From: Cytophagales bacterium
GTDB lineage: Bacteria; Bacteroidota; Bacteroidia; Cytophagales; VRUD01
Reading direction: 5' to 3'
Assembly (NCBI GenBank): GCA_019456305.1
Contig: VRUD01000001.1
Coordinates: forward strand, 9,717-73,716
DNA: 64,000 nucleotides
The notes under the pieces were generated by a model that worked only from the letters and a program-made list of their open reading frames with translations, made no database searches and was not told the origin of the DNA. Positions within the stretch are counted from its first letter, which is position 1; every line of letters begins with the position of its first letter. Position numbers and translations under genes: made by a program. Of this stretch, positions 13,716 through 42,732 are shown piece by piece.

Positions 13716-13734
13716 TTTCCTGTCGAAACGTTTT

Positions 13735-13858: not shown

Positions 13859-13882
13859 CCATTATTAACCTTCACTCCATTA

Positions 13883-13972
13883 GGGCATCTCTAAAAACTA
13901 CACCATACATTCCCCTCTATCAAGAGGGGCAAGGGGTGTGTTTTAAAAAATATGTAGTTTTTAGAGATGCCC
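13883..13972. mobile_element. 90-bp MITE-like element (copy 1), 20-bp perfect TIR GGGCATCTCTAAAAACTACA
   Basis: Identical at 90/90 positions to 49125-49214. It sits between the RAYT relic and the A2M start. Confidence 0.7.
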
Positions 13973-16900: not shown

Positions 16901-19405
16901 TTCTACGTCAATACGGATAAAAAATCGGCCTCCATATCATTGCCGGTCAAAGAGGAATATTTACCCAATGCTTATGTGACTGCTACCTTGATCAAGCCGG
17001 TAACAGATGACGCCATACCATTGACAGTAGCCCACGGCTTTGTTCCTTTGTTTGCAGAAAAGCAGGTTCATAAATTGCCGGTAACGATCCATGCCGTTGA
17101 AAAATCGCGTTCAAAAAGAAAACAAAAGATATGCATTAAAAGCCTTCCCAAATCCAATATTGAGCTTACTGTAGCGGTTGTTGATGAAGGAATTCTCCAG
17201 ATCAAGAATTATCAGACTCCCGACCCCTATAAATTCTTTTTCCGCAAAAAGGCCCTGGAGGTTAATTCCTATGACATATACCCGAAATTATTCCCTGAGC
17301 TGAGGATCAGCAAAGAAAGCTACGGAGCCGGGGGCTATGACCTGGAAAAACGCGTCAACCCGCTGACCAGTAAAAGGGTGAAGCTGCTGGCGTTCTGGAG
17401 TGGTATTTTGAAAACGAACAGCAAAGGAGAGGCATGCTATACGATAGATATCCCCCAATTTTCCGGTGATCTGAGGATCATGGCTGCTGCCTGGAAAGAT
17501 AATGCTTTTGGGGCTGCTGACAAGCATATGAAAGTAGCAGACCCTGTAGTAGTAAGCGCTGCACTGCCAAGGTTTTTAAGTCCTGGTGACACGGTGCTGG
17601 TACCTGTAACGATCACGAATACAACAGCCAAAAATACCAGTGCAAAAGCAACAATCAGCGTGAAAGGCCCGCTAAAAATAATCGGTAAAAAAGAACAAAG
17701 CGTGAACCTGAAGGCAAACAGTGAACGCCAGGTACAATTTAAAGTTTTTTCAAAACGTGAGATCGGTGCAGGTGAAGTAAAAGTGATTGTAAATGCATTA
17801 AATGAAAAATTCACAGAAAAAATTGACATCACTGTCAGGCCGGCCGCTTCTTTATTGAAGTTGAGCGGATCGGGTCTTGTACCTGCAGGAAAAAGCCAGA
17901 CCATAGACCTGGGAAACGACTTCATTCCCTCCACCGTGGAAGCTAAGCTGATCATCAGCAAATCGCCTATGATACAATTTACGGAAGACCTGAATTACCT
18001 GCTGGGCTATCCGTATGGCTGCATAGAGCAAACGGTTTCCAAAGCATTTCCCCAGATCTATTTCCATGACCTTGTGAAGTCAATAGGAATTAAGAAAATG
18101 CAGCGTTCCAATCCGAACTATAATGTACAGGAAGCGATCCGCAAGATACAGACCATGCAGTTGTACGATGGCTCATTAGCTTATTGGCCGGGAGGCAGCA
18201 GGGCAAGCTGGTGGTCAACGGTGTACGCAGCGCATTTCCTGTATGAAGCCAAAAAGGCTGGTTTTGAATTAGACGCCAAAATATTAGACAGGATATACAG
18301 CTATCTTGAAAAAAAGGTAAAAAATAAAAAAACAGAAAAATACTATTATTATGATGAGAGTGGCGTCTATAGAAGTAAAAAGATCGCACCCAAAGAAATT
18401 TTTTATTCTTTATATGTATTAACGATGGCCGGCAAGCGTGATCTTTCTACTATGAATTATTATAAGTCGCGCACGGATCTGATGGCGCTTGATTCAAGGT
18501 ATATGCTGGCCTGCAGCTATTTGTTATCCGGAGATGCATCGGGCTATAGAATATTGTTACCAAAAAATTTTTCGGGCGAGATATCCAAGCCTGTATTCGG
18601 TGGAAGCTTTTATTCTTACATAAGAGACGAAGCGATTGCCTTGAATGCGCTGCTGGAAGCTGACCCGCAAAATGTACAGATAGGGATCATGGCAAGGCAT
18701 TTATCACAGCAAATGAAAAAGAGCAGGTATTTATCTACCCAGGAAAGGTCTTTTGCTGTTCTTGCCTTGGGTAAATTGGCTCAAATGGCAAGTAAACACA
18801 ATATCACGGCAGATGTGAAAGTTAAAGGAAAACAGGTTGCAGGTTTCAGTGGTGAAGATTTGCATTTAAGTAAAGGTATAAAAGGGCAAAAAGTTACCGT
18901 TGTTGCCAAAGGAGAAGGCAATCTTTATTATTTCTGGGAAGTTGAAGGCCTTAGTGCGAGCGGAGAATATAAACAGGAGGATAGCTTTATCAAAGTGAGA
19001 AAATCTTTTTACGACAGAAATGGCCGTATGATCACCAATAATAGTTTCAGGCAAAATGACCTGGTTGTGGTTAAATTAACCATTAACTCTTTGGATGGTT
19101 CTACCATAGACAATGTAGTGATCACAGACATGCTGCCCGCAGGGTTTGAGATCGAAAACCCGCGCATCAACACCATGCCCGACCTAAAGCTGCCAGCTAC
19201 AGCTTCGTACCCCGAACACTTTGACATAAGGGATGACAGGATCAATCTGTTTACTACCGTTAGAGGGACTGCCCGGAACTATTACTATGTGGTGAGAGCA
19301 GTTTCCAAAGGTGTTTTCCAGATGGGCCCTGTTGGAGCCGATGCGATGTATAACGGGGAGTATCATTCTTATCATGGGGCGGGAACGGTGAGAATTTACG
19401 AATGA
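13994..19405 (+). CDS. Alpha-2-macroglobulin family lipoprotein (thioester-containing)
   Basis: 1803 aa with lipobox LAAC|SGG. Thioester motif GCIEQ (CIEQ at 18020-18031) in GYPYGCIEQTVSKAFP. Large MG-domain-like beta-rich body and a C-terminal receptor-binding-like domain. Confidence 0.9.
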   Translation: MKNSIKNLAIAATMILAACSGGRLKVTDKNFAEEIELRQNLVFIFNKDLMPDSLCNLWNKTEYIKFTPPVLGKFQWTSPSELVFSPDLGFAASTEYKGEFTEKLLNFATKVNSLPSERIIPFHTPYLDLLGTDIFWAKTSGKIQARINLNFNYKVNHQELARLLHIKVDGKERDFIMNSSSIAHTIEVAVDEPADKKFDNLSLKIVIDKGLKCIESDWISKEKIELTTKIPDKGKFQITQVTTEHDGERGIIHVYTNQGVEDKNIRSRVTFQPYIAFKIEKLEYGFLVKGDFKTETTYELTISKDIKGIFGSRLGKDHEQFVVFGEVEPDIRFTAKKAIYLTGKGTKNVGIKIVNIPTVNVKIYKIYKNNILAFLKSSGAFNYHDDYYDDYYWYGSSNLGTWGDVVLDRDYKTKDLKKLNAASLLNLNFRDINQFKGIFVIEVSSKEDRWLKASQTVAISDVGLIVKETKNAILVFANSILTAEPLAGIDVGLVSSNNQFVYNLNTDNDGVAVFKDIRKKAAGFNIKMVTARDGEDFTYLHFRQSKVENSRYEVGGSRENPAGYQAFIYGDRNIYRPGETIHVNTIIRNEKWEPVGKIPIKLKLLLPNGKEYRLIKGKLNSQGAFETSIELSSSTVTGTYTLEVYSSNDVLLNSEYISVEEFMPDRIKVNVTLNNVVDGRVRPLHPGEDLEVSATALNLFGPPAANRNYEMEMVFNRKYFSPKGLRDYNFYISGTDNTSFDREYREGKTDENGVAIEEFHIPEVYENMGMLSGKVYVTVFDETGRPVNRINSFDVVTQDVFYGIKYFDTYVATNKALRIPLIAINNDGTVLQNIPARVQIIKRTWHTVIEKRRSGKYRYVSQKKEEVMEERMMDISGIKTYFAYKPTISGEYEVRISKQGTDSYVKQYFYAYGWGRTESTSFEVDKEGQVTIELDKDKYKVGDDAKILFKTPFSGKLLVTVERNKVFDHFYVNTDKKSASISLPVKEEYLPNAYVTATLIKPVTDDAIPLTVAHGFVPLFAEKQVHKLPVTIHAVEKSRSKRKQKICIKSLPKSNIELTVAVVDEGILQIKNYQTPDPYKFFFRKKALEVNSYDIYPKLFPELRISKESYGAGGYDLEKRVNPLTSKRVKLLAFWSGILKTNSKGEACYTIDIPQFSGDLRIMAAAWKDNAFGAADKHMKVADPVVVSAALPRFLSPGDTVLVPVTITNTTAKNTSAKATISVKGPLKIIGKKEQSVNLKANSERQVQFKVFSKREIGAGEVKVIVNALNEKFTEKIDITVRPAASLLKLSGSGLVPAGKSQTIDLGNDFIPSTVEAKLIISKSPMIQFTEDLNYLLGYPYGCIEQTVSKAFPQIYFHDLVKSIGIKKMQRSNPNYNVQEAIRKIQTMQLYDGSLAYWPGGSRASWWSTVYAAHFLYEAKKAGFELDAKILDRIYSYLEKKVKNKKTEKYYYYDESGVYRSKKIAPKEIFYSLYVLTMAGKRDLSTMNYYKSRTDLMALDSRYMLACSYLLSGDASGYRILLPKNFSGEISKPVFGGSFYSYIRDEAIALNALLEADPQNVQIGIMARHLSQQMKKSRYLSTQERSFAVLALGKLAQMASKHNITADVKVKGKQVAGFSGEDLHLSKGIKGQKVTVVAKGEGNLYYFWEVEGLSASGEYKQEDSFIKVRKSFYDRNGRMITNNSFRQNDLVVVKLTINSLDGSTIDNVVITDMLPAGFEIENPRINTMPDLKLPATASYPEHFDIRDDRINLFTTVRGTARNYYYVVRAVSKGVFQMGPVGADAMYNGEYHSYHGAGTVRIYE

Positions 19406-22504: not shown

Positions 22505-23370
22505 GATTAGTAGATTTTAGTTAATGTTAAATAATTTGTTTACGGAAAATTGTTTTGGCAGAAGGACTAAAACAGTCAGAGAGATTCTCTTTTTTTTGTG
22601 TAATTTAAATTGCCGGATTGTGTGATTTAAACTCTGATATTGTAGGATTTTGTTTTAATTTTTTGTAGGTTTTTATCCTACAATGATGATAAGAAAGATA
22701 TGTATAACAAGGATGAGAAGAAGCGTTTAGAGAAGTTTAAGCTTTAATCAGAAAAGTTTTAGAAGAGTTGTTAAAAGAGATGGTTGATCATGATTCTGGT
22801 TTCAGTGCTGTCAGGTGTTACCACCTGCCACCAAATCCTCATTGAACACTAAAATATTTTTTTACCGTATTTTAATTTTTTAAATTTTAATAAAATTAAC
22901 GGATCTACAAACGGTCATAAACAATAACCTGCCAAAATAATGTCTTATGATAAAAACATCTTTTAAAGCCATTTTTTATGATCAAATGCTTCCGTTTGAC
23001 AGCAACAAGTCATAATTCGCAGGTTTATTACGTACGCATATTTACGTATTTTCAAAATTACGTAAACTTTTTGTCAAAATAATCGTAATTTAATTTGTAT
23101 TTTAAAAACATTAATTTGTACTTTTAGGAAGATTTTTACTATTTGCATTTTTATCAAAGCTATTTGCATTCTATCAAAATGGAGTATTTAAGTTTTCTTA
23201 TGTGCCTGATATCATCCCAAGCTGCAAAATGCAGCTGTTTTTTTCTGAATAAAATTACCTGTCTGCGTCCCGGGCACTCGGGACAGGCAGGCAAGATCAG
23301 GAAATCTTCTGCTGATTATTCTTTTGGCGCATACGCATGGTATGGAGCAAAGGCCAAAGCGTTGAACGCC

Positions 23371-26300
23371 ATGCTCTATGCGCTATGCGCTATGCTCTTA
23401 CTCATCTCTACCACTTCGGTTAAAGCAGCAGTTCTAACTTCTATACAAACCGGCAATTGGACTGATGCTTCCACCTGGGATCTCGGCTATGTGCCTTTAG
23501 CCACTGATGATATAGTGATTGCAGCCGGCCATACGGTATCAATTCCAAATTCGGCAGGCAACCAAACCATTACCAATTTTACTATAAATACCGGAGGAAT
23601 TTTTAATAATAGTAATAAGAGAGTTATAGTGACAGGGAATTATACCAATAACGGCACCCATGCAGGCAGCATTGCAGCCAGAACCACTTTGAATACGCCA
23701 GGAGCTAGTGTAGATGGTATAGGAACCATACACTTTGGTGATTTTGTATTTGAAAACGGAGTTAAAACGATCTTATCAACCGCTAACCTTACCAAAGCAT
23801 TTGGCGATTTTGTGATTGGAAGCGGTGTTACCGTTACCAATAATGGTACCATTACTTCTGCTGAAAGATTGGATGGTGTGGATGCCACTACTTCTATATG
23901 GGTCAATGCAGTTGGTAGTACATTGAATTTTGGGGGTGATACCTTGCTGCCTGTTGGAGTATTAACCGCATCAGCTCCAGGCAATACGATTAATTACTAT
24001 AGCTCAGGTGACCAGCCAATAAAAATACCAACTGCCAACACCTATTACAATCTTTCCTTATCAGGGACAGGTATCAAAATCTTAATGGGTAATCTTATCA
24101 TAGCCGGTAATTTAGCCATTAACAGCGTTACTTTAGATGTTGATGTCACTAATAATTACAGCTTAAATATAGGTGGAGACTGGACAAACAGCGGAGTATT
24201 TGATGAACAATTAGGTACGGTTACTTTTGATGGTACTGCAGATCAAACAATTACAAATACCCTGGGAGAAACTTTTTATATTTTAAGAATTGATAAAACG
24301 GGCGGAAATTTGATCCTCAACGATAATATCACTGTCACCACAACACTTATTATGAACCAGGGTAATATTGTTACCGGTACAAATGTTATTACAGTTGGTA
24401 CCAGCATTGCGAATATCGGAGCGCTTGCTTACACTTCCGGAACCGTTGTTGGCCAATATAAAAAATGGGTAAATGCTATAGGTGTTGGCTACAATTTGCC
24501 GTTAGGTACAAGCGCTGATTACCGGCCTTTTAATTATACACTCACCAATTTGATGGGGGGAGGCGGTACCATTACCGGTGAGTTTATTTCATCTGCCCCT
24601 GGCAACAGTGGTTTGTCTTTAAGTGATGCAGGCGTTACAATTTACAATACTTTTGTAGAAGGATACTGGAGCTTAACAGGCGGTGATGGATTAAACACCA
24701 ACAGTTTTGATATTGAAGCTACCGGTAATGGTTTTACCAGCTTTACTATTGTTGCTTCTACCCGCTTATTAACGCGTGCCGATGCCGGAAGCCTCTGGAG
24801 CGCAGAAGGTACCCACGTTGCAGCAGTTGGCAATACTGCAAAACGTACCGGCACTTCCACCCTGCCAGCTCATTATGCCTTTGGTGATACCACAAATTGT
24901 ACAGGACCAGCTACATCAACGATTACAGGGCCTGACAGCGTATGTACCGATGTTACCGGTGTCCTTTATTATGTAACAGACAATCCGCCAAACTTTTATA
25001 GCTGGACAGTTACCGGAGGAACAAAGGTTTTAGATAATGGTGACAGCATCACTGTTGACTGGGGCTCTGCCGGTATGGTTGGAGATGTTACAGTGATTGA
25101 AACCAATACCTGTTCGGAGGGCGCTCCGGTCAGCCGTGCTGTAAATATTCATTCATTACCTACTTCTGTGATCACAGGTAAAGCAAACGTTGCTGCTTTT
25201 ACCACGGGTGTACCCTACTCTGTAACTGCAAGACCTGGTTATTCACCTTATACCTGGAGTGTAACAGGTGGTGGCACAATAGTATCCGGACAAGGTACAA
25301 ATAGTATTACAGTTGATTGGGGAGCTGCGGGTGCAGGTAATGTCAGCGTGGTTGCCAGCAGCGGGTGTGGTGATGCCCCCTCCGTTGGTCTTGATGTAAA
25401 TATTTATATAGTAATAAACAGCATCGTAAATGGTGCCTGGAACCTAACCGCTACGTGGGATTGCAATTGTGTTCCTGATTTTTTTGATAATATACGAATT
25501 CAGAATACGCATACCGTAACCCTGACCACAAATGAGGTAATAAATCATTTTGAAGTAGTAGCAGGAGGGGTCTTTGATGCTGCGGCTAAAAGGTTGGAAG
25601 TTACAGGCGATTTTAACTTAAATGGAGAATATAATGGTACTAATAACCTCACCTTAAGTGGTGCAGGTACAAACATTGATGGCGCCGGTAACATTTTCAA
25701 TACAGGAACATTGATAATATCAGGAGGGGCTAAAACTATATTATCAACGGCTGTGTTAACAAAATCTTCAGGAAGTTTTCAGATAGGCAGTGGTATTGCC
25801 GTTACAAATCAAGGAAATATTACACTTGGTGGTGATATTACAGGTGCAGCAAGCACAACAACCTGGGTAAATGATACACGCTCTACATTAAACATTGGTG
25901 GCATTATGTTAAGTACAGGAACGTTTTTTGCATCTGCTGCAAACAACTTAGTAAGTTATTATGGTGCTGTTGCTCAAAGTATAAAACTTCCAAATGCATC
26001 TACTTATCATGGTCTTTCAATTACAGGTTCGGGCATAAAAACCTTAACAGGCAATACCATCATAAATGGTGATGTGAATATCACAAGTACTTTTGATGTA
26101 GATGCTGCCAGCAATTATAGTATTGACATGCTGGGAAATTGGACCAATAGCGGAACTTTTAATGCTCAGATCGGCAAGGTAACTTTCAGAGGCTCTGCTG
26201 CACAATCAATTACAAACACCACTGGCGAATCCTTTTATGACCTGGTGATTAATAATAGCAGCGGGATCAATTTGGGCGGGCCTGTAACTGTAAACGATTC

Positions 26301-27414
26301 CCTGATACTTACCAATGGAATAGTCAATACCACATCTGCCAATATTTTGATCATTGCTGATAATGCAACCTCTACGAGCGGCTCATCTACAAGCTTTGTG
26401 GATGGACCTATGCGAAAAGTTGGTAATGATGCATTTGTTTTCCCTGTGGGGGACAGCATAATCTGGGCACGCATTGGAATTTCAGCGCCTGCTACGCTAA
26501 CTGCTGCCTTTGAGGCACAATATTTCAATGCTACGTATGCCAATACTGTCTCAGTAGGCACGCTTAACAATGTGAGCAAATTAGAACACTGGATATTGAA
26601 TCGTACTGCAGGAGTAGATGCTGTTACAGTTACCTTATACTGGGAAGATGGTACGCGTAGTGATATTAATGATCTGCCGGATTTAGTCGTTGCCAGATTT
26701 GATGGTACCAATTGGATTGATGAAACACAAGCCGGTGGTGTGACCGGAACAGTAGTAGCAGGTACTGTAACGAGCCAGGTTGTTTCTTCATTCAGTCCTT
26801 TTACGTTTGGGTCAAATAGCGCTGCTGTTAATGCATTACCTGTGGATCTGGTATTCTTCACTGCAGAGCTGGAAGGCGACAAAGTAGTGATTGAGTGGGC
26901 AACAGCAAGTGAAATTAATAACGATTATTTTACAGTGCAAAGAAGCGCTGATGGGGATATTTCACTAAGTTCAGTACAAGGTTTTGAAGATCTTGTTAAT
27001 ATAGATGGTGGCGGCACCAGCAATATGACGTTGTATTATACCGTAATTGACAATAATCCGATTTTCGGAACTTCTTATTATCGGCTCCTGCAGACCGATC
27101 ATGATGGACAGAGAGAATATTTTGATGCAATAAGAGTAAGTTATCTGCCTGAAAATCAAATTTTTAGTATATACCCTAACCCAACTAAGGGTGATGATCT
27201 GCATTTGACTATAAAAACAAGCAAGGATCAGCATTTACGAATAGTAATAACCGATGTAGTCGGCAAAAAATACTTCTTACAGGTAGTTGTATTGAATGAA
27301 GGTGAAAATTCTATTGAAATTGATGCTGCTGGTAAATTATCTCCGGGAGTATATAATCTCACCGGTACAATTGATGATAATTTTTTGTTTTTTAAGAAAT
27401 TTGTGGTTGAATAA
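23371..27414 (+). CDS. Large T9SS-secreted surface protein (two ~450-aa internal modules, two Ig/PKD-like domains, T9SS CTD)
   Basis: Signal-like MLYALCAMLLLISTTSVKAAV at 23371. Repeated NWxxxxTWD..VP modules. CT..TITGPDSVC..YSWTVTGG..ITVDWG domains occur twice. The C-terminus IYPNPTKGDDLHLTI...GVYNLTG is a T9SS CTD. The track start at 23143 reads through upstream hairpins. Confidence 0.7.
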   Translation: MLYALCAMLLLISTTSVKAAVLTSIQTGNWTDASTWDLGYVPLATDDIVIAAGHTVSIPNSAGNQTITNFTINTGGIFNNSNKRVIVTGNYTNNGTHAGSIAARTTLNTPGASVDGIGTIHFGDFVFENGVKTILSTANLTKAFGDFVIGSGVTVTNNGTITSAERLDGVDATTSIWVNAVGSTLNFGGDTLLPVGVLTASAPGNTINYYSSGDQPIKIPTANTYYNLSLSGTGIKILMGNLIIAGNLAINSVTLDVDVTNNYSLNIGGDWTNSGVFDEQLGTVTFDGTADQTITNTLGETFYILRIDKTGGNLILNDNITVTTTLIMNQGNIVTGTNVITVGTSIANIGALAYTSGTVVGQYKKWVNAIGVGYNLPLGTSADYRPFNYTLTNLMGGGGTITGEFISSAPGNSGLSLSDAGVTIYNTFVEGYWSLTGGDGLNTNSFDIEATGNGFTSFTIVASTRLLTRADAGSLWSAEGTHVAAVGNTAKRTGTSTLPAHYAFGDTTNCTGPATSTITGPDSVCTDVTGVLYYVTDNPPNFYSWTVTGGTKVLDNGDSITVDWGSAGMVGDVTVIETNTCSEGAPVSRAVNIHSLPTSVITGKANVAAFTTGVPYSVTARPGYSPYTWSVTGGGTIVSGQGTNSITVDWGAAGAGNVSVVASSGCGDAPSVGLDVNIYIVINSIVNGAWNLTATWDCNCVPDFFDNIRIQNTHTVTLTTNEVINHFEVVAGGVFDAAAKRLEVTGDFNLNGEYNGTNNLTLSGAGTNIDGAGNIFNTGTLIISGGAKTILSTAVLTKSSGSFQIGSGIAVTNQGNITLGGDITGAASTTTWVNDTRSTLNIGGIMLSTGTFFASAANNLVSYYGAVAQSIKLPNASTYHGLSITGSGIKTLTGNTIINGDVNITSTFDVDAASNYSIDMLGNWTNSGTFNAQIGKVTFRGSAAQSITNTTGESFYDLVINNSSGINLGGPVTVNDSLILTNGIVNTTSANILIIADNATSTSGSSTSFVDGPMRKVGNDAFVFPVGDSIIWARIGISAPATLTAAFEAQYFNATYANTVSVGTLNNVSKLEHWILNRTAGVDAVTVTLYWEDGTRSDINDLPDLVVARFDGTNWIDETQAGGVTGTVVAGTVTSQVVSSFSPFTFGSNSAAVNALPVDLVFFTAELEGDKVVIEWATASEINNDYFTVQRSADGDISLSSVQGFEDLVNIDGGGTSNMTLYYTVIDNNPIFGTSYYRLLQTDHDGQREYFDAIRVSYLPENQIFSIYPNPTKGDDLHLTIKTSKDQHLRIVITDVVGKKYFLQVVVLNEGENSIEIDAAGKLSPGVYNLTGTIDDNFLFFKKFVVE

Positions 27415-27420
27415 GTTTTC

Positions 27421-27497
27421 TTGCCACGAAGACACGAAGACACTAAGGTGTTATAAAAAAAATAACTTTGTGATTCTTTGTGTCTTAGTACCTTTGA
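27421..27497. repeat. GTGGCA-family hairpin after the T9SS gene
   Basis: TTGCCACGAAGACACGAAGACACTAAGGTG..loop..CTTTGTGATTCTTTGTGTCTTAGTACCTTTGAG. Its right arm repeats at 28516-28541. Confidence 0.7.
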
Positions 27498-27538
27498 GTT
27501 TGTTTAATCTTTAACAAAACGATGTCATCGCTATATCT

Positions 27539-27754
27539 TTGAATATTAACTTTAAAAAAAATAAAAATGAAAGAAATGAGATTTATGAGCAAATTTCTTC
27601 TGATCCTGAAATTATGCACGGAAAACCTTGTATTAAAGGAACAAGAATTCCAGTTCAATTGATAGTTTCAATGCTCGCTGATGGAATGTCTGAACAAGAA
27701 ATTATTAAAGAATATCCTTCATTGACAATCAATACTGTTTTAATTTTGCAGTAA
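27539..27754 (+). CDS. DUF433-like protein (TTG start, C-terminally short)
   Basis: ISSDPEIMHGKPCIKGTRIPVQLIVSMLADGMSEQEIIKEYPSLT matches the DUF433 core seen twice more at 62370 and 63037. It lacks the usual C-terminal helix. Confidence 0.55.
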   Translation: MNINFKKNKNERNEIYEQISSDPEIMHGKPCIKGTRIPVQLIVSMLADGMSEQEIIKEYPSLTINTVLILQ

Positions 27755-27772
27755 TTTCTTTATCTTTGAAGC

Positions 27773-28090
27773 ATGGATAAAATTGAAATAATAAAAGAAT
27801 TAAAAGAATTACTCATCAAATATTTCCCTGGCGAAATTGCTCAGGTAATATTATTTGGTTCCCAGGTAAACGGAGATGCGCGGGAATATTCTGATTATGA
27901 TGTGCTTATTGTTGTAAATCGTAATTATGATTGGAGATATGAAAGGAAAATATTAAGGGTTGTCTATAAGAATGATCTTAAATACCATATCCTTACTGAT
28001 TTCACACTTATTTCAAATAAAGAATTAAATACCCTTAAAGGTAAACAACCGGTCGTGCTTGAAGCATTTGAAAACGGTATTGTAATATGA
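27773..28090 (+). CDS. Nucleotidyltransferase-domain protein (MNT-type antitoxin)
   Basis: The FGSQVNGDAREYSDYDVLIVV motif is the minimal NTase GS..(D/E).D signature. 105 aa. Confidence 0.8.
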   Translation: MDKIEIIKELKELLIKYFPGEIAQVILFGSQVNGDAREYSDYDVLIVVNRNYDWRYERKILRVVYKNDLKYHILTDFTLISNKELNTLKGKQPVVLEAFENGIVI

Positions 28091-28491
28091 CACTTAAACA
28101 TGAAGATAGAGAGAGTTTGATCAGATACAGAACTGAGCAGGCAGAAGATGCCATTGAAGATGCTCAAATTTTGATCGCAAAAGACAGGTTGAAAGCGGCA
28201 GTAAACAGAATATATTATGCAGTGTACTATATTGTTTTTGCTTTAGCTCTTAAGCACAAATTTAAAGGTACAAAACATTTGCCCCTGATAGCATGGTTTG
28301 ATAAAAAGTTTGTAGAAACAAATGTAGTTGATGTAAAGTATGGCGAAATGTACAGGGAAGCATTTAAAAAACGTTCTGAAGCTGATTATGGAACTTTTAC
28401 AAAATTCACCAAAAAGCAGGTTCTGGATTTGTTTGATCAAATGATGGAATTTGTTAAAAAAATTAAACATCTCCTTTATTCTGATGATTGA
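28087..28491 (+). CDS. HEPN-domain protein (toxin partner of MNT)
   Basis: Four-nt ATGA overlap with the NTase gene. The helical 134-aa protein with ..AVNRIYYAVYY.. and ..KRSEADYG.. fits the HEPN family. Confidence 0.75.
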   Translation: MTLKHEDRESLIRYRTEQAEDAIEDAQILIAKDRLKAAVNRIYYAVYYIVFALALKHKFKGTKHLPLIAWFDKKFVETNVVDVKYGEMYREAFKKRSEADYGTFTKFTKKQVLDLFDQMMEFVKKIKHLLYSDD

Positions 28492-28515
28492 TTTAAATTT
28501 TAAATCTTAGTGAAA

Positions 28516-28541
28516 CTTTGTGTCTTAGTACCTTTGTGGCA
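28516..28541. repeat. Half GTGGCA-family element; 21-bp direct repeat of 27476-27496
   Basis: CTTTGTGTCTTAGTACCTTTG is identical at 27476-27496 and 28516-28536. Here it continues ..TGGCA. Confidence 0.8.
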
Positions 28542-28572
28542 TGAAGGCAATTTTAAGTAGTAGCTTTAAAAA

Positions 28573-29400
28573 ATGTTCTATTTATTGAGAAAATTAATTA
28601 GGTGTAGTATTATCATTTTGGTGTGGTGTCAGGTGTTTCCACCTGACACTCCTGTATTTGCACAGGCTGATAAAACAGCCCGGGAAAATACAGATATGAT
28701 CCCACTTGCTAATGATATGTATAATTTCAGGCATTTTAAAGATGCTCAGGATATCTACCTTAAAGTTCTGGAATTTGGTCCTGATAATGCTGCGGTCAAC
28801 TTGTTGGCAGGTTTATGTTATCTTAAAACAGTGAATAAAGTAAAAGCCATCCCGTATTTAAAAAAAGCACACCAATTGAACCCCGAAATATTGAAGCTAA
28901 TGGTTGATTATATTGAATTTAGCGATGAAGAATTAGCGCGGATCAATTCAACTGATTATATTATATATTTGATAGCAAAAGGATATCACCTGACTCATGA
29001 TTTTAACAAGGCGATAGAATATTATGAGCGTTACCATGATAGTGTTTTGCAAAGAGATTTTTTTAAATGGGGATACAGGTCAAGTGAAAAAAATGAGCTT
29101 ATTAATAAGATAAAGAGAAATATCTTTGAATGTAATAATGGAAAAGAATTTGTGAAGTACCCCGTAGGTGCGTTAATTGACAATATAGGAGTGCTGATCA
29201 ATACGCCTCATTCGGAATATGTACCCTTGATCTCTGCTGATGATTCTGTGCTGATCTTTACATCCAGAAGAATGGGAAGCACTGGCTGGAACAGGTCCGA
29301 AGATCATGACTTTTTTGAAGATATTTATATATCCCGTAAAAGAGGGAATTACTGGGTAAAACCGAAATATAGGCAGCGATATAAATTCTGCCTTACATGA
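28573..29400 (+). CDS. TPR + first PD40 (TolB-like) repeats; 5' part of a frameshifted OmpA-family gene
   Basis: Signal peptide ..VFA|QAD, then TPR-like helices, then ..FTSRRMGSTGW..EDIYIS..YWVKPK. The reading continues in the +1 frame from about 29365. Confidence 0.7.
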   Translation: MFYLLRKLIRCSIIILVWCQVFPPDTPVFAQADKTARENTDMIPLANDMYNFRHFKDAQDIYLKVLEFGPDNAAVNLLAGLCYLKTVNKVKAIPYLKKAHQLNPEILKLMVDYIEFSDEELARINSTDYIIYLIAKGYHLTHDFNKAIEYYERYHDSVLQRDFFKWGYRSSEKNELINKIKRNIFECNNGKEFVKYPVGALIDNIGVLINTPHSEYVPLISADDSVLIFTSRRMGSTGWNRSEDHDFFEDIYISRKRGNYWVKPKYRQRYKFCLT

Positions 29401-29521: not shown

Positions 29522-31837
29522 TTGCATATAAACAGCAATTGTACCGAACCATCCGTATCTGTCACTGCTGACGGTCAAACCTTATATTTTTCAAGTACAA
29601 AACCCGACATATACGGAGACCTTGATATTTTCGTCAGTCATAAAAAAAAGAATGGAAAATGGGGAAAATCAACCAGATTAGGACCTGAAATAAATACAGA
29701 ATATGATGAAGATGCGCCTTTTATACTTCCTGATGGGAAAACATTATATTTTAGCTCCAGAGGTCATAAGGGTATGGGCGATTATGATGTTTTCAGAACC
29801 ATATTGGATGAGAACGGAAAGTGGTCAGAGCCGGAAAATATAGGCTACCCGGTGAATACTGCAGAGAATGATATTTATTTTGTTTTTTCAAATGATGGCA
29901 AGCGAGGGTATTTTTCTTCTTACAGAAAAGAAGGATATGGTGAACAGGATATTTACGTTGTTAATCTGCCCGATTTATTTGCACTTTTTCAACGATTTGA
30001 TAATGATTCTTTAGCTTTAATAGCTATGATAAGATCTTATGGCGTTGAAAGTAATCGGCTGACCAACGAAATAGTTTTAAATGACATATTGGGCGCTGAA
30101 AAAGCAAAAAAAATGGCACAATACCTGGAAATAAAAAGGCTTACCCAAAGCGAAGCGAGGGAACTCGAAAAAGAATTTCTTCAAAAGGATTCAACAGAAG
30201 TTTTAGCTTTAGTAGTATTAGAGGAAGAGGGTAAAATAATAGTGATGGAAGAAGAAGAATTTATGCCTGCCTTTGATCCGCAGGATACAACTGCAACGAT
30301 CAAAGATACTTCTGTTGTAAAAAGTATTACTATTACTACTGACAGCATTGCTGAACAATTTAATGCTGGATTTATGTTCAGTTGTTATTATCGCCTTAGA
30401 ATAGTAGATAAATCAAAGATCACAGTTGAAGGCGGATACATCGTAGATGGAATTACCATCGGATACTATGACCAGGTGGGAGCATTTAACTTTGTTAAAC
30501 TTTCTCCCGATGAGCTCAGGAGACTTTCTGCTCCTGTAGGTTCAATGCTGACTGCCGACAGGGAATTGGTGGTTAATGATATTACTATTGGATACTACAG
30601 TGAAGATGGTGAATTTCACTATTCTAATCTTTCACCTGATGAGATCAGGAGGCTGAGTTCACGTAAGGGACCAGTGCTTACAGCAGACCGCAAATTAATG
30701 TTTGAGGGCGTTACTATTGCATACTACGATGTAGATGGTAAATTTCAGTTTGTCAATCTTTCACCTGATGAGATCAAGAGGCTTAGCTCACCTGAAGGCA
30801 CGATGCTGACGGCAGACAGGAAATACGTAGTGGATAATGTTGCTATCGGTCACTACGATAAAAAAGGAACATTTAAGTTTGCCAAACTTTCTAGTGATGA
30901 GATCAGGAAACTTACACCACCCCCTAAGAGCTCCTTGTTAACGGCAGATAGAAAATTGGTTGTTTATGGAATTACTCTTGGATATTACAATGAGCAGGGA
31001 GAATTTAATGTTTCAAATCTTTCTGCTGATGAACTGGACGAACTTAGTTCAATTGTCGCTGTTTCCCGGAATCAAGTCGATGAGATCACTGTTGGCTGCT
31101 ATGATGACCAGGGAGAATTTAAATATGTAGTACTTTCGCCTGATGAGATCAGATGGCTTACTTCAGTTGCAGGTGCAATGATCACAGCAGATGGAAAATA
31201 TGTAGTTGATGGCGTTACTATTGGATATAGCGCCAGTTCCCAGCCACCTGGCGGGGATAGTATTCCACCGCCTGATTCTCTCTATGGCCCATCTCTCTCT
31301 CCCGCACCCCCTGACCCTCCCGACCAAAGGTACGGGACAGGCCTGAAGGGGGAACGGCCTTCTAATGACTTAACAGTAATAGAGCTACACGAAACAAAAG
31401 ACTCTGCTGAAACTGAAATTGTTTCTGTCTCATCAGAATCTCCCGAAGGGGACCCTGATGATTTTAGCGGTAAAAGTATTGCTTGTGCCGAAGTAGGAAA
31501 AAGTATTAAATTTAAAAATATCCTTTTCAATTTTGACAACTATGCTTTAAGGTCTGCAGCATTTAAAGGATTAAATTATTTGAAAGATGTAATTGAGCCT
31601 TGCGATGAAGTAAAAATTACCATCATCGGGCATACAGATAATGTTGGTCCTGCTTCCTACAACCAGGCCTTATCAGAAAAAAGGGCAAAATCAGTATATG
31701 ATCAATTAATAAAAAAAGGTGTCCAGTCAAGTAAATTAACTTATAAGGGATATGGTGAAGAAAAACCGGTCGTGCCCAACGATACAAAAGAAAAACGGCA
31801 GCTTAACAGGAGGGTGGAGTTTGAAATTTTAAATTAA
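29522..31837 (+). CDS. PD40 repeats + six 44-aa novel repeats + OmpA C-terminal domain; 3' part of the same gene
   Basis: PD40 patterns (TADGQTLYFSS, LPDGKTLYFSS, SNDGKRGYFSS). C-terminal OmpA-like block FDNYALR...IIGHTDNVG...YNQALSEKRA..V...NRRVEF. The frame is open back to 29360. Confidence 0.8.
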   Translation: MHINSNCTEPSVSVTADGQTLYFSSTKPDIYGDLDIFVSHKKKNGKWGKSTRLGPEINTEYDEDAPFILPDGKTLYFSSRGHKGMGDYDVFRTILDENGKWSEPENIGYPVNTAENDIYFVFSNDGKRGYFSSYRKEGYGEQDIYVVNLPDLFALFQRFDNDSLALIAMIRSYGVESNRLTNEIVLNDILGAEKAKKMAQYLEIKRLTQSEARELEKEFLQKDSTEVLALVVLEEEGKIIVMEEEEFMPAFDPQDTTATIKDTSVVKSITITTDSIAEQFNAGFMFSCYYRLRIVDKSKITVEGGYIVDGITIGYYDQVGAFNFVKLSPDELRRLSAPVGSMLTADRELVVNDITIGYYSEDGEFHYSNLSPDEIRRLSSRKGPVLTADRKLMFEGVTIAYYDVDGKFQFVNLSPDEIKRLSSPEGTMLTADRKYVVDNVAIGHYDKKGTFKFAKLSSDEIRKLTPPPKSSLLTADRKLVVYGITLGYYNEQGEFNVSNLSADELDELSSIVAVSRNQVDEITVGCYDDQGEFKYVVLSPDEIRWLTSVAGAMITADGKYVVDGVTIGYSASSQPPGGDSIPPPDSLYGPSLSPAPPDPPDQRYGTGLKGERPSNDLTVIELHETKDSAETEIVSVSSESPEGDPDDFSGKSIACAEVGKSIKFKNILFNFDNYALRSAAFKGLNYLKDVIEPCDEVKITIIGHTDNVGPASYNQALSEKRAKSVYDQLIKKGVQSSKLTYKGYGEEKPVVPNDTKEKRQLNRRVEFEILN
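30440..31231 (+). repeat. Six tandem 132-bp (44-aa) coding repeats
   Basis: Units have the form V(D/N)xITIGYYdxxGeFxxxxLSPDEIRRLSSxxGxMLTADRKxV. Confidence 0.85.
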
Positions 31838-32641: not shown

Positions 32642-32806
32642 ATCAATTAATAAAAAAAGGTGTTCAGTCAGGTAAATTAACTTATAAGGGATATGGTGAA
32701 GAAAAACCGGTTGTGCCCAACGATACAAAAGAAAAACGGCAGCTTAACAGGAGGGTGGAGTTTGAAATTTTAAATTAAAAAGGTTTTCGTGGTGTCGGGT
32801 GTTTCC
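32642..32806. repeat. 165-bp direct repeat, copy 2
   Basis: See 31701-31865. Confidence 0.9.
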
Positions 32807-32852
32807 TTGTAGAGACGTTGCATGCAACGTCTCTACAAGGAAACACCCGACA
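32793..32852. repeat. 60-bp perfect palindrome (nested hairpin elements)
   Basis: TGTCGGGTGTTTCCTTGTAGAGACGTTGCA|TGCAACGTCTCTACAAGGAAACACCCGACA is an exact reverse complement. It is followed by TCAGGTGGAAACACCTGA at 32859-32876. Confidence 0.9.
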
Positions 32853-38052: not shown

Positions 38053-38116
38053 TGCCACAAAGACGTACTAGATACACAAAGGTAATTTTACATATTTTGT
38101 GCCTTAGTTAGTGGCA
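38053..38116. repeat. GTGGCA-family hairpin between preA and the ABC operon
   Basis: TGCCACAAAGACGTACTAGATACACAAAGG..loop..TTTTGTGCCTTAGTTAGTGGCA. Confidence 0.7.
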
Positions 38117-38123: not shown

Positions 38124-39002
38124 ATGGAATTAAAAATCAATAATCTATCAAAAACTTATCCGAATGGTGTAGAGGCGTTAAAAAATGTCTCCTTAACGAT
38201 TCCTACTGGCATGTTTGGTTTACTTGGGCCGAATGGCGCAGGTAAATCAACCTTAATGCGCATCATTGCTACTTTACAGCAAGCAGATACGGGTTCTGTT
38301 TATCTTGATGATCTAAACGTATTGGACCAAAAGGATGAAGTTAGAAAATTATTGGGATATCTACCGCAGGAATTTGGCTTGTACCCAAAAGTAACTGCTG
38401 AAGGTTTGTTGAATCATTTTGCAGTATTAAAAGGTGTTTCTAATCCTAAAGAAAGAAAAGAAGTGATCCATGGTTTACTTCAATTAACCAATTTATATGA
38501 GGTGAGAAAGAAAAATCTGGGAACTTTTTCCGGAGGTATGAAACAACGGTTTGGTATTGCACAAGCACTTTTAGGCGACCCAAAGTTGATCATTGTAGAT
38601 GAACCTACGGCAGGGTTAGACCCTGCTGAGCGCATACGGTTTCATAACCTGCTGAGTGAAATCGGGGAAAATGTCATTGTTATACTTTCTACGCATATTG
38701 TGGATGATGTAAGTGATCTATGCAGCAGCATGGCAATCATTCATCTTGGAGAGGTGCTCTTAACCGGAAGCCCTTTGCAGCTTATGAATGATCTGAAAGG
38801 CAAAGTGTGGGAAAAAGTAATTGAGAAAGATCAGCTAAAAGCGTATAAGGATAAATTTAATGTTATCTCTGCCAGGTTGTTTGCCGGCAAGTCCCTGATC
38901 CATGTGTATAGTGAACAAAAACCGGATAAATCTTTTGAGACGGTACCACCTGAATTGGAAGATGTATATTTTTCTACTATTACAAAAGATATTCATGTTT
39001 AA
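38124..39002 (+). CDS. ABC transporter ATP-binding protein
   Basis: Walker A GPNGAGKST, signature FSGGMKQR, Walker B LIIVDEPTAGLD. Confidence 0.9.
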   Translation: MELKINNLSKTYPNGVEALKNVSLTIPTGMFGLLGPNGAGKSTLMRIIATLQQADTGSVYLDDLNVLDQKDEVRKLLGYLPQEFGLYPKVTAEGLLNHFAVLKGVSNPKERKEVIHGLLQLTNLYEVRKKNLGTFSGGMKQRFGIAQALLGDPKLIIVDEPTAGLDPAERIRFHNLLSEIGENVIVILSTHIVDDVSDLCSSMAIIHLGEVLLTGSPLQLMNDLKGKVWEKVIEKDQLKAYKDKFNVISARLFAGKSLIHVYSEQKPDKSFETVPPELEDVYFSTITKDIHV

Positions 39003-42000
39003 AGAAATTTTCTTTTTTGAACTTAAATACCGCTTCAAGCGCCCTGCCAATTACATATATTTTGGCATTTTCTTTTTGCTGACTTTCCTGGCAGTGAATG
39101 GAATGGCCGGGGGTTTCAAAGGAGTGGTCATCAGTGTTGGCAGCGGAGGCGGAGGGAAAGTACTGGCAAACTCACCATATCAAATTTATCTCCTGATAAC
39201 TCTTCTAAGTTATTTTGGCATTTTGGTGACTTCAGCCATTATGGGCAATCCTGTTTACAGGGATTTTGAACACCAAACGCATTCTTTATTCTATTCAAAA
39301 CCTATTTCTAAATTCGGATATTTAGCGGGCAGGTTTTTGGGTTCATTGGTAATTGCTTTTTTGGTTTTTTTAGGTCTTGGAATAGGGATTTTAACTGCTT
39401 CATGGATGCCGTGGTTAGACCAGGATTATATTGGTCCATTTTATGCAATGGCTTATGTGCAGCCCTATTTAGTTACAGTACTTCCCAACCTGATATTTAC
39501 AGGCGCTATCTTTTTTGCATTAGCCACGCTCACCAGGAATATTCTTTCTACTTATGTTGGAAGTGTTGTTTTCTTAGTCTTGTATTTTATGGGGCTCAGC
39601 CTTCTTTCTGACCTGGAAAATGAAACTATTGCAGCATTATTAGATCCATTTGGAGAAAGCGCTACCGGATTAGCAACAAAATATTGGACAGTAGCTGAAA
39701 AGAATACATTGATCATTCCATTTACCGGGCACTTATTTTTCAACAGAATTATCTGGTTAAGTGCCGGTGTATTGATCTTTGCTTTTGCATATAAAAAATT
39801 CAGCTTCTCTTATTTTATTTCAGAAAAGAGATCTAGGAAAAAATTGAAGCAGCAAACTTTAGAAACTGAAACAATAGATTGGGCAGGGAAATTTTTAATA
39901 CCACGAGCAACCAGGATATTTTCCTTTTCTACAAATTTAGTACAATATATTAAACTTACAGGGCAGGAATTAAAAGGAATTGTAAAGAACGTTTACTTTA
40001 TAGCCATACTATTTGCCGGTGTAGTGCTGATGTTTGTTAATGGAAGCCAGGTTGGAAAGTTTTATGGAACAACTACCTATCCCGTTACCTACCAGGTTAT
40101 TTCAATAATAAGCGGCTCTTTCGGCTTGTTTTTTCTTATTATTATTATCTTTTATGCCGGTGAATTGGTTTGGAGAGAACGTACAACCAAGATCAATCAG
40201 ATTTTTGATGCCCTACCCATCCCTAACTGGGTGCCGTTTAGTTCTAAATTAACTGCTTTGATCCTGCTTCAGGTCGTATTACTCTTAGTAGTAATGCTGT
40301 GTGGTTTAATCATCCAGGTATTTAAGGGGTATTATCATTTTGAGACCGGTCTATATGTAAAATCATTATTCGGATTACAATTTATAGAACTTGCCTTGCT
40401 TTGTGTATTAGCCATGCTGGTCCAGGTAATCGTAAATCATAAATATCTTGGACATTTTATCATGGTTGTATATTTTTTGGTGAGCATTTTTATGGCGCAA
40501 TTTGGTTGGGAACATAAACTATATGATTACGCTGATGATCCGGGATATACCTATTCTGATATGAATGGCTTTGGACATTTTATCTTGCCGATTGGGTGGT
40601 TTAAAATTTACTGGACGGCTTTTGCAGTATCATTAGCGATATTGTCTAACCTTTTCTGGGTACGGGGGTTGGAAACAAGCCTTAAATGGCGGACTCAACT
40701 TGCAAGAAGACAATTTGTTAAGCCCACAAAAATAGCTTTTATCTTAGCTTTATTGGTATTCTTTATTTCCGGTGGTTTTATTTTTTACAATACCAATATC
40801 TTAAATGAATATATGACCAGCAACGAAAGAGAAGAACTAAGTGTAGAATATGAAAAGCGATATAAAAAGTTTGAAAATTCACCACAACCGCGTATAACAG
40901 ATGTAAATGTCAACGTAGATATCTACCCACTTAGCAGAGATGTTGCATTTAAAGGACATTATATTTTAAAAAATAAAACCAACGAGGCTATTGATTCTAT
41001 CCATATTGATATAAATCGCAACATAACTATTAATGATATGTCTTTTGACAGGAATCATAAAATGGTTTTGGAAGATGAGAAGATAGGGTACTACATAGTT
41101 GAATTATCAAAACCATTATTGCCGGGTGAAAATGTAGTGCTTCAATTTGATTTAGCTTTCACTACGAAAGGGTTCAAAAATAGCGGCTCCAATACAAGTA
41201 TCGTTGAAAACGGGACATTTTTACATAGTAACAGCTATTTACCCGCTATTGGCTACAACGAAGGCGGAGAATTAAGTGATGATGATACCCGTAAAAAACA
41301 TGGCCTGAAACCTAAAGAACGTATGGCTTTAGTAAATGACAGCAATGCAAGGTTGAATAATTATATCTCACATGATGCTGATTGGATTACTTTTGAAGCT
41401 ACTATAAGTACCAGCCCGGATCAGATTGCTATAGCGCCTGGTTATTTACAACGTGAATGGACAGAGGGTAACAGAAGATACTTTCATTATAAAATGGACT
41501 GTAAAATTTTGAATTTTTATTCTTTCCTATCTGCAAGGTATGAAGTTATAAGAGATAGCTACGGCCCTACCAGCCCCCCTAACAGCCCCCCTAAATCCCC
41601 CCAAAGGGGGGCTGTTAGGGGGGCTATTGAAATTTATTACCATAAAGGACATGAATACAACCTGGATGCTATGGTAAAAGCTATTAAAAGATCTTTGGAT
41701 TATTATACAGAAAATTTCTCACCCTACCAGCATAAGCAAGTCAGGATACTGGAATTTCCCCGCTATGCTTCATTTGCACAATCATTTCCTAATACCATTC
41801 CTTATTCAGAAGCAATAGGTTTTATTGCACAGGTAGATGAGGATGATGAAGATGATATTGATTATCCCTTTTATGTTACAGCCCATGAAGTAGCGCACCA
41901 ATGGTGGGCTCACCAGGTGATAGGAGGGAATGTACAAGGCGCTACGGTGATGTCTGAAACCATGTCTCAATATTCAGCCTTGATGGTGATGGAAAAAGAG

Positions 42001-42732
42001 TTTGGAAAGGAAAAAATGAAGAAATTTCTTAAATATGAATTGGACAGATATTTAAGAGGTAGAAGTTTTGAACGAAAAAAGGAACTGCCGTTGATATTGG
42101 TAGAAGGACAGGGATATATTCATTATCAGAAAGGTGGGTTGGTAATGTACGCATTGCGTGATTACATAGGAGAGGATTCATTAAATGAAGCGTTAAGAAA
42201 ATATATCAAAGCAGTAGCTTATCAACAACCCCCATATACCAATTCACTGGAATTTTTAAGCTATATCAAATCAGCTACCCCCGATTCTCTGCAATATATA
42301 ATAAAGGATATGTTTGAAACGATTACCTTGTATGAAAACAAAACCAATGAAGCTGTACTTAAAAAACGCCCGGATGGTAAGTATGCTGTTAAGATTAAGG
42401 TAGCGTCTAAAAAGTTACGGGCTGACAGTTTGGGAAATGAAAAAGAGATCCCTGTTAACGACTGGATAGATATTGGGATATTTGGTAAATCCGAATTGAA
42501 AGCAGAGACGCCCAATTTGGACGTCTCTGCTTTCAATTCGGAAAAAAACTCTAATTCGGATAAATCCTCTATTGGTAAGCCTTTGTACCTGAAAAAACAT
42601 AAAATTAACCAGCCGGAAATGGAATTTGAAATTATTGTAGACGAGCTTCCCTGGAAAGCCGGCATAGATCCCTATAATAAATTAATTGACCGTGATTCGG
42701 GAGATAATGTAAAGAAGGTAGGGGCTGGTTGA
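38995..42732 (+). CDS. ABC-2-type permease fused to an M1-family zinc aminopeptidase domain
   Basis: The ATG at 38995 overlaps the ATPase stop (ATGTTTAA). About 12 TM segments run to roughly 40800. Then comes a peptidase domain with HEVAHQWW...E zinc site. Two hairpin insertions are carried in frame. Confidence 0.8.
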   Translation: MFKEIFFFELKYRFKRPANYIYFGIFFLLTFLAVNGMAGGFKGVVISVGSGGGGKVLANSPYQIYLLITLLSYFGILVTSAIMGNPVYRDFEHQTHSLFYSKPISKFGYLAGRFLGSLVIAFLVFLGLGIGILTASWMPWLDQDYIGPFYAMAYVQPYLVTVLPNLIFTGAIFFALATLTRNILSTYVGSVVFLVLYFMGLSLLSDLENETIAALLDPFGESATGLATKYWTVAEKNTLIIPFTGHLFFNRIIWLSAGVLIFAFAYKKFSFSYFISEKRSRKKLKQQTLETETIDWAGKFLIPRATRIFSFSTNLVQYIKLTGQELKGIVKNVYFIAILFAGVVLMFVNGSQVGKFYGTTTYPVTYQVISIISGSFGLFFLIIIIFYAGELVWRERTTKINQIFDALPIPNWVPFSSKLTALILLQVVLLLVVMLCGLIIQVFKGYYHFETGLYVKSLFGLQFIELALLCVLAMLVQVIVNHKYLGHFIMVVYFLVSIFMAQFGWEHKLYDYADDPGYTYSDMNGFGHFILPIGWFKIYWTAFAVSLAILSNLFWVRGLETSLKWRTQLARRQFVKPTKIAFILALLVFFISGGFIFYNTNILNEYMTSNEREELSVEYEKRYKKFENSPQPRITDVNVNVDIYPLSRDVAFKGHYILKNKTNEAIDSIHIDINRNITINDMSFDRNHKMVLEDEKIGYYIVELSKPLLPGENVVLQFDLAFTTKGFKNSGSNTSIVENGTFLHSNSYLPAIGYNEGGELSDDDTRKKHGLKPKERMALVNDSNARLNNYISHDADWITFEATISTSPDQIAIAPGYLQREWTEGNRRYFHYKMDCKILNFYSFLSARYEVIRDSYGPTSPPNSPPKSPQRGAVRGAIEIYYHKGHEYNLDAMVKAIKRSLDYYTENFSPYQHKQVRILEFPRYASFAQSFPNTIPYSEAIGFIAQVDEDDEDDIDYPFYVTAHEVAHQWWAHQVIGGNVQGATVMSETMSQYSALMVMEKEFGKEKMKKFLKYELDRYLRGRSFERKKELPLILVEGQGYIHYQKGGLVMYALRDYIGEDSLNEALRKYIKAVAYQQPPYTNSLEFLSYIKSATPDSLQYIIKDMFETITLYENKTNEAVLKKRPDGKYAVKIKVASKKLRADSLGNEKEIPVNDWIDIGIFGKSELKAETPNLDVSAFNSEKNSNSDKSSIGKPLYLKKHKINQPEMEFEIIVDELPWKAGIDPYNKLIDRDSGDNVKKVGAG
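41572..41625. repeat. 54-bp hairpin in frame in the M1 domain
   Basis: AGCCCCCCTAACAGCCCCCC (41572-41591) is the perfect reverse complement of GGGGGGCTGTTAGGGGGGCT (41606-41625). It encodes ..SPPNSPPKSPQRGAVRGA.. Confidence 0.9.
42491..42541. repeat. 51-bp hairpin (AGACG-CCCAATTTGG-CGTCT core family) in frame in the M1 domain
   Basis: CCGAATTGAAAGCAGAGACG (42491-42510) is the perfect reverse complement of 42522-42541, with loop CCCAATTTGGA. It encodes SELKAETPNLDVSAFNS. Confidence 0.9.

Follow-up and report, generated by a model that had tools for sequence, protein, structure and literature searches.

The movement of small toxin-antitoxin (TA) and defence cassettes, which have no recombinase of their own and are found in many contexts, is poorly understood. 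We analysed a stretch of 64,000 nucleotides from a Cytophagales bacterium (contig VRUD01000001.1; called the window in the following), in which a TA island of about 1 kb lies between two copies of one arm of an intergenic hairpin. This locus provides a junction at nucleotide resolution that implicates a dispersed hairpin repeat as portable homology, or as a site, for integration. The hairpin belongs to a family of the form TGCCAC(NAAGNCAC)n ... GTGGCA. Among the described systems it resembles repetitive extragenic palindromic (REP) elements, the bacterial interspersed mosaic elements (BIMEs) and the REPINs (REP doublets forming hairpins), which are intergenic palindromes, short and imperfect, that are present in many copies, form subfamilies specific to a genome, occur solo and in pairs and are frequent sites of nesting and rearrangement. 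The family studied here was likewise found to be multi-copy, intergenic and imperfectly palindromic and to fall into subfamilies. Unlike the REP elements with their GTAG or CGTC tags, it is made of tandem CACNAAGN octamers (CACNAAG arms) with a TGCCAC/GTGGCA clamp, and no RAYT (IS200-like Y1) transposase was seen among the tested open reading frames (ORFs) of the window. The locus also differs from the insertion sequences that target REP elements, since what was inserted here is a TA cassette that lacks a transposase. The short tandemly repeated repetitive (STRR) sequences of cyanobacteria are intergenic arrays of 7-8-nt tandem units, often in inverted arrays, and in this they are like the hairpin arms, but they belong to another phylum and have another unit sequence. 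We know of no link between STRR sequences and cassettes.

Integron cassettes with their attC sites, as found in sedentary chromosomal integrons and in clusters of attC sites lacking integron integrases (CALINs), share with the locus a small size, a frequent TA content, imperfect hairpins of 60-150 nt, the lack of an own recombinase and chimeric flanks. In contrast to them, RYYYAAC/GTTRRRY cores are missing and the hairpin ends in TGCCAC and GTGGCA; a single cassette with its own promoter box is present, and only half a hairpin stands on its right. Among the neighbouring ORFs tested (10.7-39 kb, with the ORFs at 13994-19405 and 38902-42732 left out) there was no recombinase or transposase, IntI included. 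The pdif modules of Acinetobacter plasmids, which depend on XerC/D, are also integrase-less modules of about 1 kb, often with TA genes and short conserved sites in varied contexts. Their sites are inverted 28-bp XerC/XerD sites on plasmids, whereas here direct copies of an octamer-array arm are found on a chromosome.

The genes of the island have known counterparts as well. As in the type VII systems (HepT/MntA), the MNT gene lies upstream of the HEPN gene and overlaps it, the GS...DxD motif is present and the pair is under purifying selection; by analogy with these systems, MNT would be the enzyme that neutralises the HEPN toxin. The HEPN domain is PF05168 and not DUF86, and in all three homologs R-x4-Y stands in place of R-x4-6-H: the only candidate motif is RSEADY in the window and on contig L014, and RSEGDY on contig L020. 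The first gene of the island has the DUF433 domain of the DUF433 and DUF5615 (PIN-like) pairs, of which an intact one is present at 62370-62962. Unlike in these pairs, DUF433 of the island lacks both a partner toxin and its C-terminus, and a usable start codon is probably missing too.

The gene upstream encodes a large protein sorted by the type IX secretion system (T9SS); the hairpin begins 7 nt after its stop codon, and the right arm of this hairpin is present twice (Table 1). The first copy ends 5 nt short of the family terminus GTGGCA. Its last 21 nt (27476-27496) are repeated at 28516-28536, inside the second, complete copy. The 64 kb contain this 21-mer, CTTTGTGTCTTAGTACCTTTG, at exactly these two places; no third match was found in the window at up to 3 mismatches and none in 100 shuffles. 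The left 21-mer is followed by AGTTTG and the right one by TGGCA, the complement of the TGCCA in the left arm, and the breakpoint at 27496/27497 lies five bases before the hairpin end. The second arm copy pairs with the region 27418-27447 (30 nt, 80% complementary). When the sequence was folded with RNAfold, a free energy of -21.3 kcal/mol was obtained for the hairpin as it is and of -35.9 kcal/mol with 27497-28536 removed, where the TGCCAC/GTGGCA clamp was paired and the hairpin is typical of the family. An earlier note on this DNA had described the exact direct repeat, the left copy as belonging to the right arm, the continuation into TGGCA after the right copy only and the re-creation of a complete hairpin by the deletion, and all four were confirmed.

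The 21-bp identity was exact as the earlier note had stated, but the likeness is not confined to it. The two arm copies are alike over 31 nt, which is the whole right arm, with 28 of the 31 positions identical. Within the 21-mer they agree at all five free (unconstrained) positions and share a GTAC variant that is rare in the family (2/123 arms among the matches listed). In the preceding unit, CTTTGTGATT on the left and CTTAGTGAAA on the right, they differ at all three free positions. Since five of five free positions agree in the 21-mer and then none of three, the border between identical and merely family-like sequence is sharp. If only 21 bp had been duplicated at the target, the right copy would not be expected to follow an extra family unit unlike that of the left copy, yet it does. 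The right copy is a whole arm with a different family first unit, which disfavours a target duplication by staggered cuts and favours recombination between arms.

The enclosed DNA has a GC content of 30.3% compared to 37.8 +/- 3.5% for the window, which places it in the lowest few percent of the 1-kb windows. Its ORFs are three, DUF433, MNT and HEPN, and none of them encodes a transposase. The MNT and HEPN genes overlap by an ATGA start/stop, and HEPN is followed by a 14-nt tail, TTTAAATTTTAAAT. Against the homologs on L014 and L020, a dN/dS of 0.12-0.18 was obtained for both genes, which indicates purifying selection. The DUF433 gene is not followed by a DUF5615 gene but by MNT. When it was aligned with the two complete paralogs of the window, about 15-20 C-terminal residues were lacking. 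Its in-frame sequence NEIYEQISSDPEI aligned with MEWQEHIHSDPKI of the paralogs, and an ATG is found one base out of frame at 27576. Probably a single nucleotide was deleted after this ATG (ATGGAG to ATGAG), shifting the frame at codon 2, and with such a deletion the gene would be a pseudogene.

The closest relatives of the HEPN protein are 89% and 78% identical in amino acid (aa) sequence and are encoded on contigs from other samples. The DNA homology between the window and L014 starts at about 27755, some 18 nt before the start codon of MNT and directly past the DUF433 stop codon, and ends at 28505/28506, 14 nt past the HEPN stop codon. Since the L014 copy has no DUF433, no CACNAAG arms and other neighbours, MNT-HEPN is a separately mobile module of about 750 bp. 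The 3' cut of DUF433 coincides exactly with the module boundary, and the right edge of the module abuts the first base of the complete four-unit right arm (28506). The MNT-HEPN module appears to have replaced the 3' portion of a locus of the DUF433 type. Of what had been claimed for the genes, the missing DUF433 C-terminus and the intact MNT/HEPN pair were upheld, and the idea of an insertion is supported by the atypical composition of the enclosed DNA and by the different context of the module in a relative. The TTG taken as the DUF433 start is present, but it is the end of a TAnnTTTG motif (27534-27541), of which it forms the final three bases. The proposed insertion of a 1-kb TA island into the hairpin holds for the real breakpoint and for the missing TGGCA, found after the second copy, but not for the island as one unit, because MNT-HEPN moves without DUF433 and arms. 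On L014 the module starts a few nt after a hairpin of unrelated sequence (2559-2662, ACTACAAGAATA...TATTCTTGTAGT, -26.9 kcal/mol). A plasmid or phage origin of the cassette was considered and rejected: only HEPN genes of about 29% identity were found on cyanobacterial and Salinibacter plasmids, no phage DNA matched, and the 21-mer was absent from the viral contigs.

We tentatively favour, as a plausible reading that falls somewhat short of probable, that arm-to-arm recombination, and not transposition, joined a composite TA islet lacking a recombinase to a REP-like hairpin. DNA carrying a family arm of its own would have entered a resident hairpin just 3' of the T9SS-cargo gene and broken it 5 nt before the hairpin's 3' end. 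The right arm of the resident hairpin and the arm on the cassette would have recombined, either by Campbell-type integration of a circle of about 1040 bp or by homology-facilitated illegitimate recombination of linear DNA, and two chimeric arms would have resulted. The left one would run from the resident first unit CTTTGTGATT into the cassette DNA (AGTTTG...), and the right one from the cassette first unit CTTAGTGAAA to the TGGCA terminus of the resident hairpin. The exchange would have taken place within the 21 shared bases, which would then not be a target duplication made by a transposase. An older DUF433-type TA gene would have become a remnant: an intact MNT-HEPN module, which has a promoter box of its own, would have replaced the rest of it as far as the arm's inner edge. 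The empty site would be expected to read ...GTGATTCTTTGTGTCTTAGTACCTTTGTGGCATGAAGG at its junction and the circle ...TTAAATCTTAGTGAAACTTTGTGTCTTAGTACCTTTGAGTTTGTTTAATC at its joint. An exchange between arms is favoured because it explains the family unit at the end of the insert and predicts exactly the two chimeric arms that were observed. Comparable layouts on other contigs (L067, L139 and L129; Table 1) and insertions nested inside arm pairs on L135 and L108 also speak for it.

Several observations weigh against this reading. A shared length of 21-31 nt is about the least on which RecA-type recombination can act. Two arms of the same contig often show 84-96% likeness, also when the genes between them are ordinary ones, for example 84-93% over 25-90 nt around genes for an outer-membrane barrel, OmpA and an acyl-CoA dehydrogenase and around phage genes, and the window hairpins at 2093 and 46660, 44 kb apart, are about 90% alike. 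The identity of the two arms is therefore a weaker sign of a local duplication. About 40% of the family arms are solo (about 52 of 123 among the matches listed), and some compact hairpins also lack the full GTGGCA terminus (seen, not counted). The same observations, together with the presence of arms beside all kinds of genes and between phage genes, would fit two independent family elements, an eroded hairpin of the T9SS gene and an ordinary solo arm after HEPN, whose identity reflects a homogeneous, genome-specific subfamily. This explanation needs two coincidences, however: a clean cut where the complementarity to a perfect TGCCAC would go on (only one of the next five bases matches) and a neighbouring arm that supplies just that terminus. 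Identity at 21 of 21 positions, with five free positions and a rare variant among them, followed by none of three would be unlikely for paralogs that are about 90% alike, and the 64 kb contain no other member of the 21-mer subfamily. We consider two independent elements rather unlikely, but this is the main rival to an exchange between arms.

The arm-to-arm exchange also has to be weighed against the searches for an empty site. A scan of the GTDB genomes with the TPR protein encoded downstream gave nothing above 39% aa identity; the T9SS C-terminus gave no relative above 45-53% identity in a protein search, and exact-protein look-ups returned matches from the same sample only. The nearest relative of the TPR ORF (81% aa identity), found on 1.5-kb contigs with only 50 nt of upstream sequence, has another gene abutting upstream. 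Since neither an empty site nor an excised circle was found among the relatives of the TPR, T9SS and island proteins searched, the direction of the event, an insertion here or a loss elsewhere, is one that we only infer. Candidate orthologous filled and empty sites (flank ACTCAGGTATCT) were rejected, as they belonged to a longer-arm subfamily at different loci.

The hairpin family is the more unusual by-product of the analysis. When the pattern TGCCACNAAGNNACNAAGACACNAAG was scanned, at least 120 JGI metagenome contigs and 24 IMG/VR viral contigs matched. About as many of the listed arms were in compact hairpins as were solo (about 52/123 each). In 48 compact hairpins the CAC/GTG and AAG/CTT triplets were 81-100% complementary between the arms, whereas every fourth base paired at chance level only (17-33% Watson-Crick). 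Conserved triplets with a free fourth base suggest a sequence-specific recognition of inverted CACNAAGN arrays and not a selection for stem stability. The hairpins were found in co-directional, convergent and divergent intergenic regions. Their preference for gene 3' ends was weak (37/67); termination is at most a possible function. In the 24 IMG/VR contigs (L145-L168) compact hairpins lie between phage structural genes; a metagenome contig, L044, also looks phage-derived by eye from its ORFs, without a hidden Markov model match. No hairpin matched Rfam at the gathering score, and 27350-28650 gave one chance snoRNA match (E=0.047). The sole gathering-score match of the window was the DUF805b RNA motif at 132-168 on the minus strand (41.6 bits). 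Searches of the searchable literature with sequence strings, GxxExxY and REP, TA and attC terms found no description of the family. It is widespread, without an Rfam family and apparently undescribed, occurring very widely in Bacteroidota-type genomes and phages under a rule of triplets plus a free base. A sister subfamily (GCCAC AAAAGCAC AAAAGCAC TAAATCCCAC...) is represented by the hairpins at 2093-2185 and 46660-46754; one of them stands between divergent ORFs, and they have single mismatches at N positions.

The triplet rule also bears on the possibility that the arms are not mere terminators but attC-like, protein-recognised recombination sites of a dedicated cassette system with a trans-acting recombinase in Bacteroidota and phages, and that the window shows a freshly integrated TA cassette. 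The strong conservation of the triplets across many environments, with the fourth base free and unpaired, would agree with such a system, and so would a cassette without its own recombinase. Layouts of arm, cassette and arm recur in unrelated contigs with TA, HNH and PDDEXK_3 cargo (Table 1). On L067 each of the 224-nt repeats has a family hairpin and CGCGAAG-type octamer arrays. Most arms flank housekeeping genes, however, and the related MNT-HEPN module stands at an arm-less site. In addition, attC core sites are absent, no recombinase gene was identified among the ORFs tested, and with repeat lengths ranging from 21 to 224 nt a homologous exchange is a better fit than crossing over at a fixed site. 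A dedicated system is therefore improbable. If the arms were true recombination sites, they would form a counterpart of the integrons as a cassette system; otherwise we would be dealing with an ordinary repeat-mediated insertion of selfish genes.

A wider role of the hairpins as landing pads for TA and defence cassettes had been proposed in the earlier note, and this was not borne out. A handful of parallel cases do exist, on L067, L139, L129, L120 and L043 (Table 1), and some hairpin loops hold nested repeats. In 700 kb of contigs with hairpins, however, the 89 small ORFs next to arms were overwhelmingly housekeeping genes and showed no enrichment of TA genes (a tally, with no control-based statistic). 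Only PDDEXK_3 recurred among them, twice. Nor were other TA cassettes of the window bracketed by duplicated arms: three TA-type loci, DUF433-DUF5615-DUF433 (62370-63261), PIN_3 (57903-58316) and DUF6922 (45028-45342), have no arms. Because arms surround housekeeping genes and TA loci can be arm-less, the hairpins are regarded as intergenic repeats of a general kind, through which cassettes are exchanged at times, and a dedicated landing-pad role is not demonstrated.

The model implicit in the earlier note was a true target-site duplication, in which a 1019-bp cassette (27497-28515) was inserted at 21-bp staggered cuts. Perfect 21-bp direct repeats do bound the foreign-looking DNA exactly, but a transposase or integrase is found neither in the island nor in the neighbouring ORFs tested. 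When the ends of the insert were read from the sequence, AGTTTG... and ...CTTAGTGAAA were not inverted repeats. The insert would also have to end by chance in the family unit CTTAGTG, which lies immediately 5' of the right 21-mer and occurs only twice on the plus strand of the 64 kb, and in the relative the MNT-HEPN part is differently bounded. To our knowledge 21 bp exceeds the duplications made by bacterial transposases. Taken together, these points make a target-site duplication quite improbable. The hairpin itself has no flanking duplication of the type made by miniature inverted-repeat transposable elements, as its flanks TTTTCT/TGCCAC and GTGGCA/TGAAGG are not duplicated and other copies are flanked by A/T runs.

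An assembly chimera at a 21-mer has in its favour that the repeat length equals k=21, the smallest k among common assemblers, and that one read set from a single sample stands behind all agreeing assemblies, but it is practically negligible, because an ENA scaffold and a Logan contig of that sample cross both junctions with 0 mismatches (three concordant assemblies) and a 21-nt repeat cannot collapse a graph of k=31, presumably the setting of the Logan assembly.

Table 1. Features of the locus, its surroundings and comparable layouts on other contigs.
Feature	Sequence	Position	Strand	Evidence or remark
Hairpin left arm, TGCCACGAAGACACGAAGACACTAAG (TGCCAC GAAG ACAC GAAG ACAC TAAG, three octamer units)	window	27422..27447	+	sequence, inverted-repeat search, fold, family pattern
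Hairpin loop with small palindrome GTTAT...ATAAC	window	27448..27465	+	sequence and fold
Right arm copy 1, CTTTGTGATT CTTTGTGT CTTAGTAC CTTTG	window	27466..27496	+	repeats, fold
DUF433 remnant and upstream region	window	27497..27754	+	Pfam DUF433 profile 1-49 of 56; paralog alignment
DUF433 ORF	window	27539-27754	+	Pfam DUF433
MNT-HEPN module	window	27755..28505	+	Pfam; DNA homology to L014/L020 confined to this span
TAnnTTTG box of the module	window	27761-27768	+	sequence
MNT (NTP_transf_2)	window	27773-28090	+	Pfam, 4.4e-11
HEPN	window	28087-28491	+	Pfam, 1.6e-10
Right arm copy 2, complete, four units, CTTAGTGAAA CTTTGTGT CTTAGTAC CTTTGTGGCA	window	28506..28541	+	repeats, fold
Upstream gene for T9SS-sorted large protein	window	23143..27414	+	Pfam Por_Secre_tail, 7.7e-08; ORF list
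Downstream TPR ORF	window	28573-29400	+	Pfam
Downstream PD40/OmpA ORF	window	29522-31837	+	Pfam
Family relatives of the hairpin	window	2093-2185; 38053-38116; 46660-46754		repeats and fold; four with the hairpin of the locus
Direct repeats of 224 nt around zeta-toxin and small-ORF cassette	L067	4633-4856 and 5913-6136		93% identity, 1280-bp spacing
Two hairpins around DUF6364 and PIN pair	L139			46-nt repeat at 89%
HNH gene between duplicated arm and loop copies	L129			
PDDEXK_3 (GxxExxY-type) gene enclosed by the arm pair of a family hairpin	L043	10037-10503		
PDDEXK_3 (GxxExxY-type) gene between hairpin and extra arms	L120	3407-4081		

Further observations were made in the window. The two ORFs downstream of the locus, one with TPR and PD40 and the other with PD40 and OmpA, are in tandem with 121 nt between them, and look like a single TPR-PD40-OmpA gene broken by a frameshift or stop, or like two genes. 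A palindrome family (GTCAGGTGTTT... / ...GAGACG..CGTCTC...) is present at 28625-28650, 32793-32852, 42490-42542 and 56810-56862. Since its first member lies in the annotated N-terminus of the TPR protein, which is not conserved there in the 81% relative, the true start of the TPR gene may be further downstream. The genome in the window is unusually rich in intergenic inverted repeats of short tandem units, with further ones at 4431-4508, 7434-7598, 13607-13972, 41572-41628, 47600-47931 and 49122-49247. Among their units are two heptamers, CGGCAGT and CAGTCCA, as well as AGCCCCCCTAAC and, at two loci, GGGCATCTCTAAAAACTACA.

A second TA cluster at 61868-63261 has a GC content of 31.5% and consists of DUF433 (62370-62609), DUF5615 (62609-62962) and DUF433 (62959-63261), with an upstream ORF of 139 aa on the minus strand that had no Pfam match; CACNAAG arms or flanking repeats were not found there. 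A direct repeat of about 23 nt, (A/G)ATTTGCGTTAC(T/A)T(T/A)GTATGTA, at 57627-57650 and 58353-58376 brackets a small ORF and the PIN_3 gene and stands before the small ORF that follows; one possibility is a promoter repeated from cassette to cassette. The DUF6922 ORF overlaps an ORF of 231 aa (45306-46001), with the 46660 hairpin about 650 nt away, and the two ORFs may form another TA-like pair.

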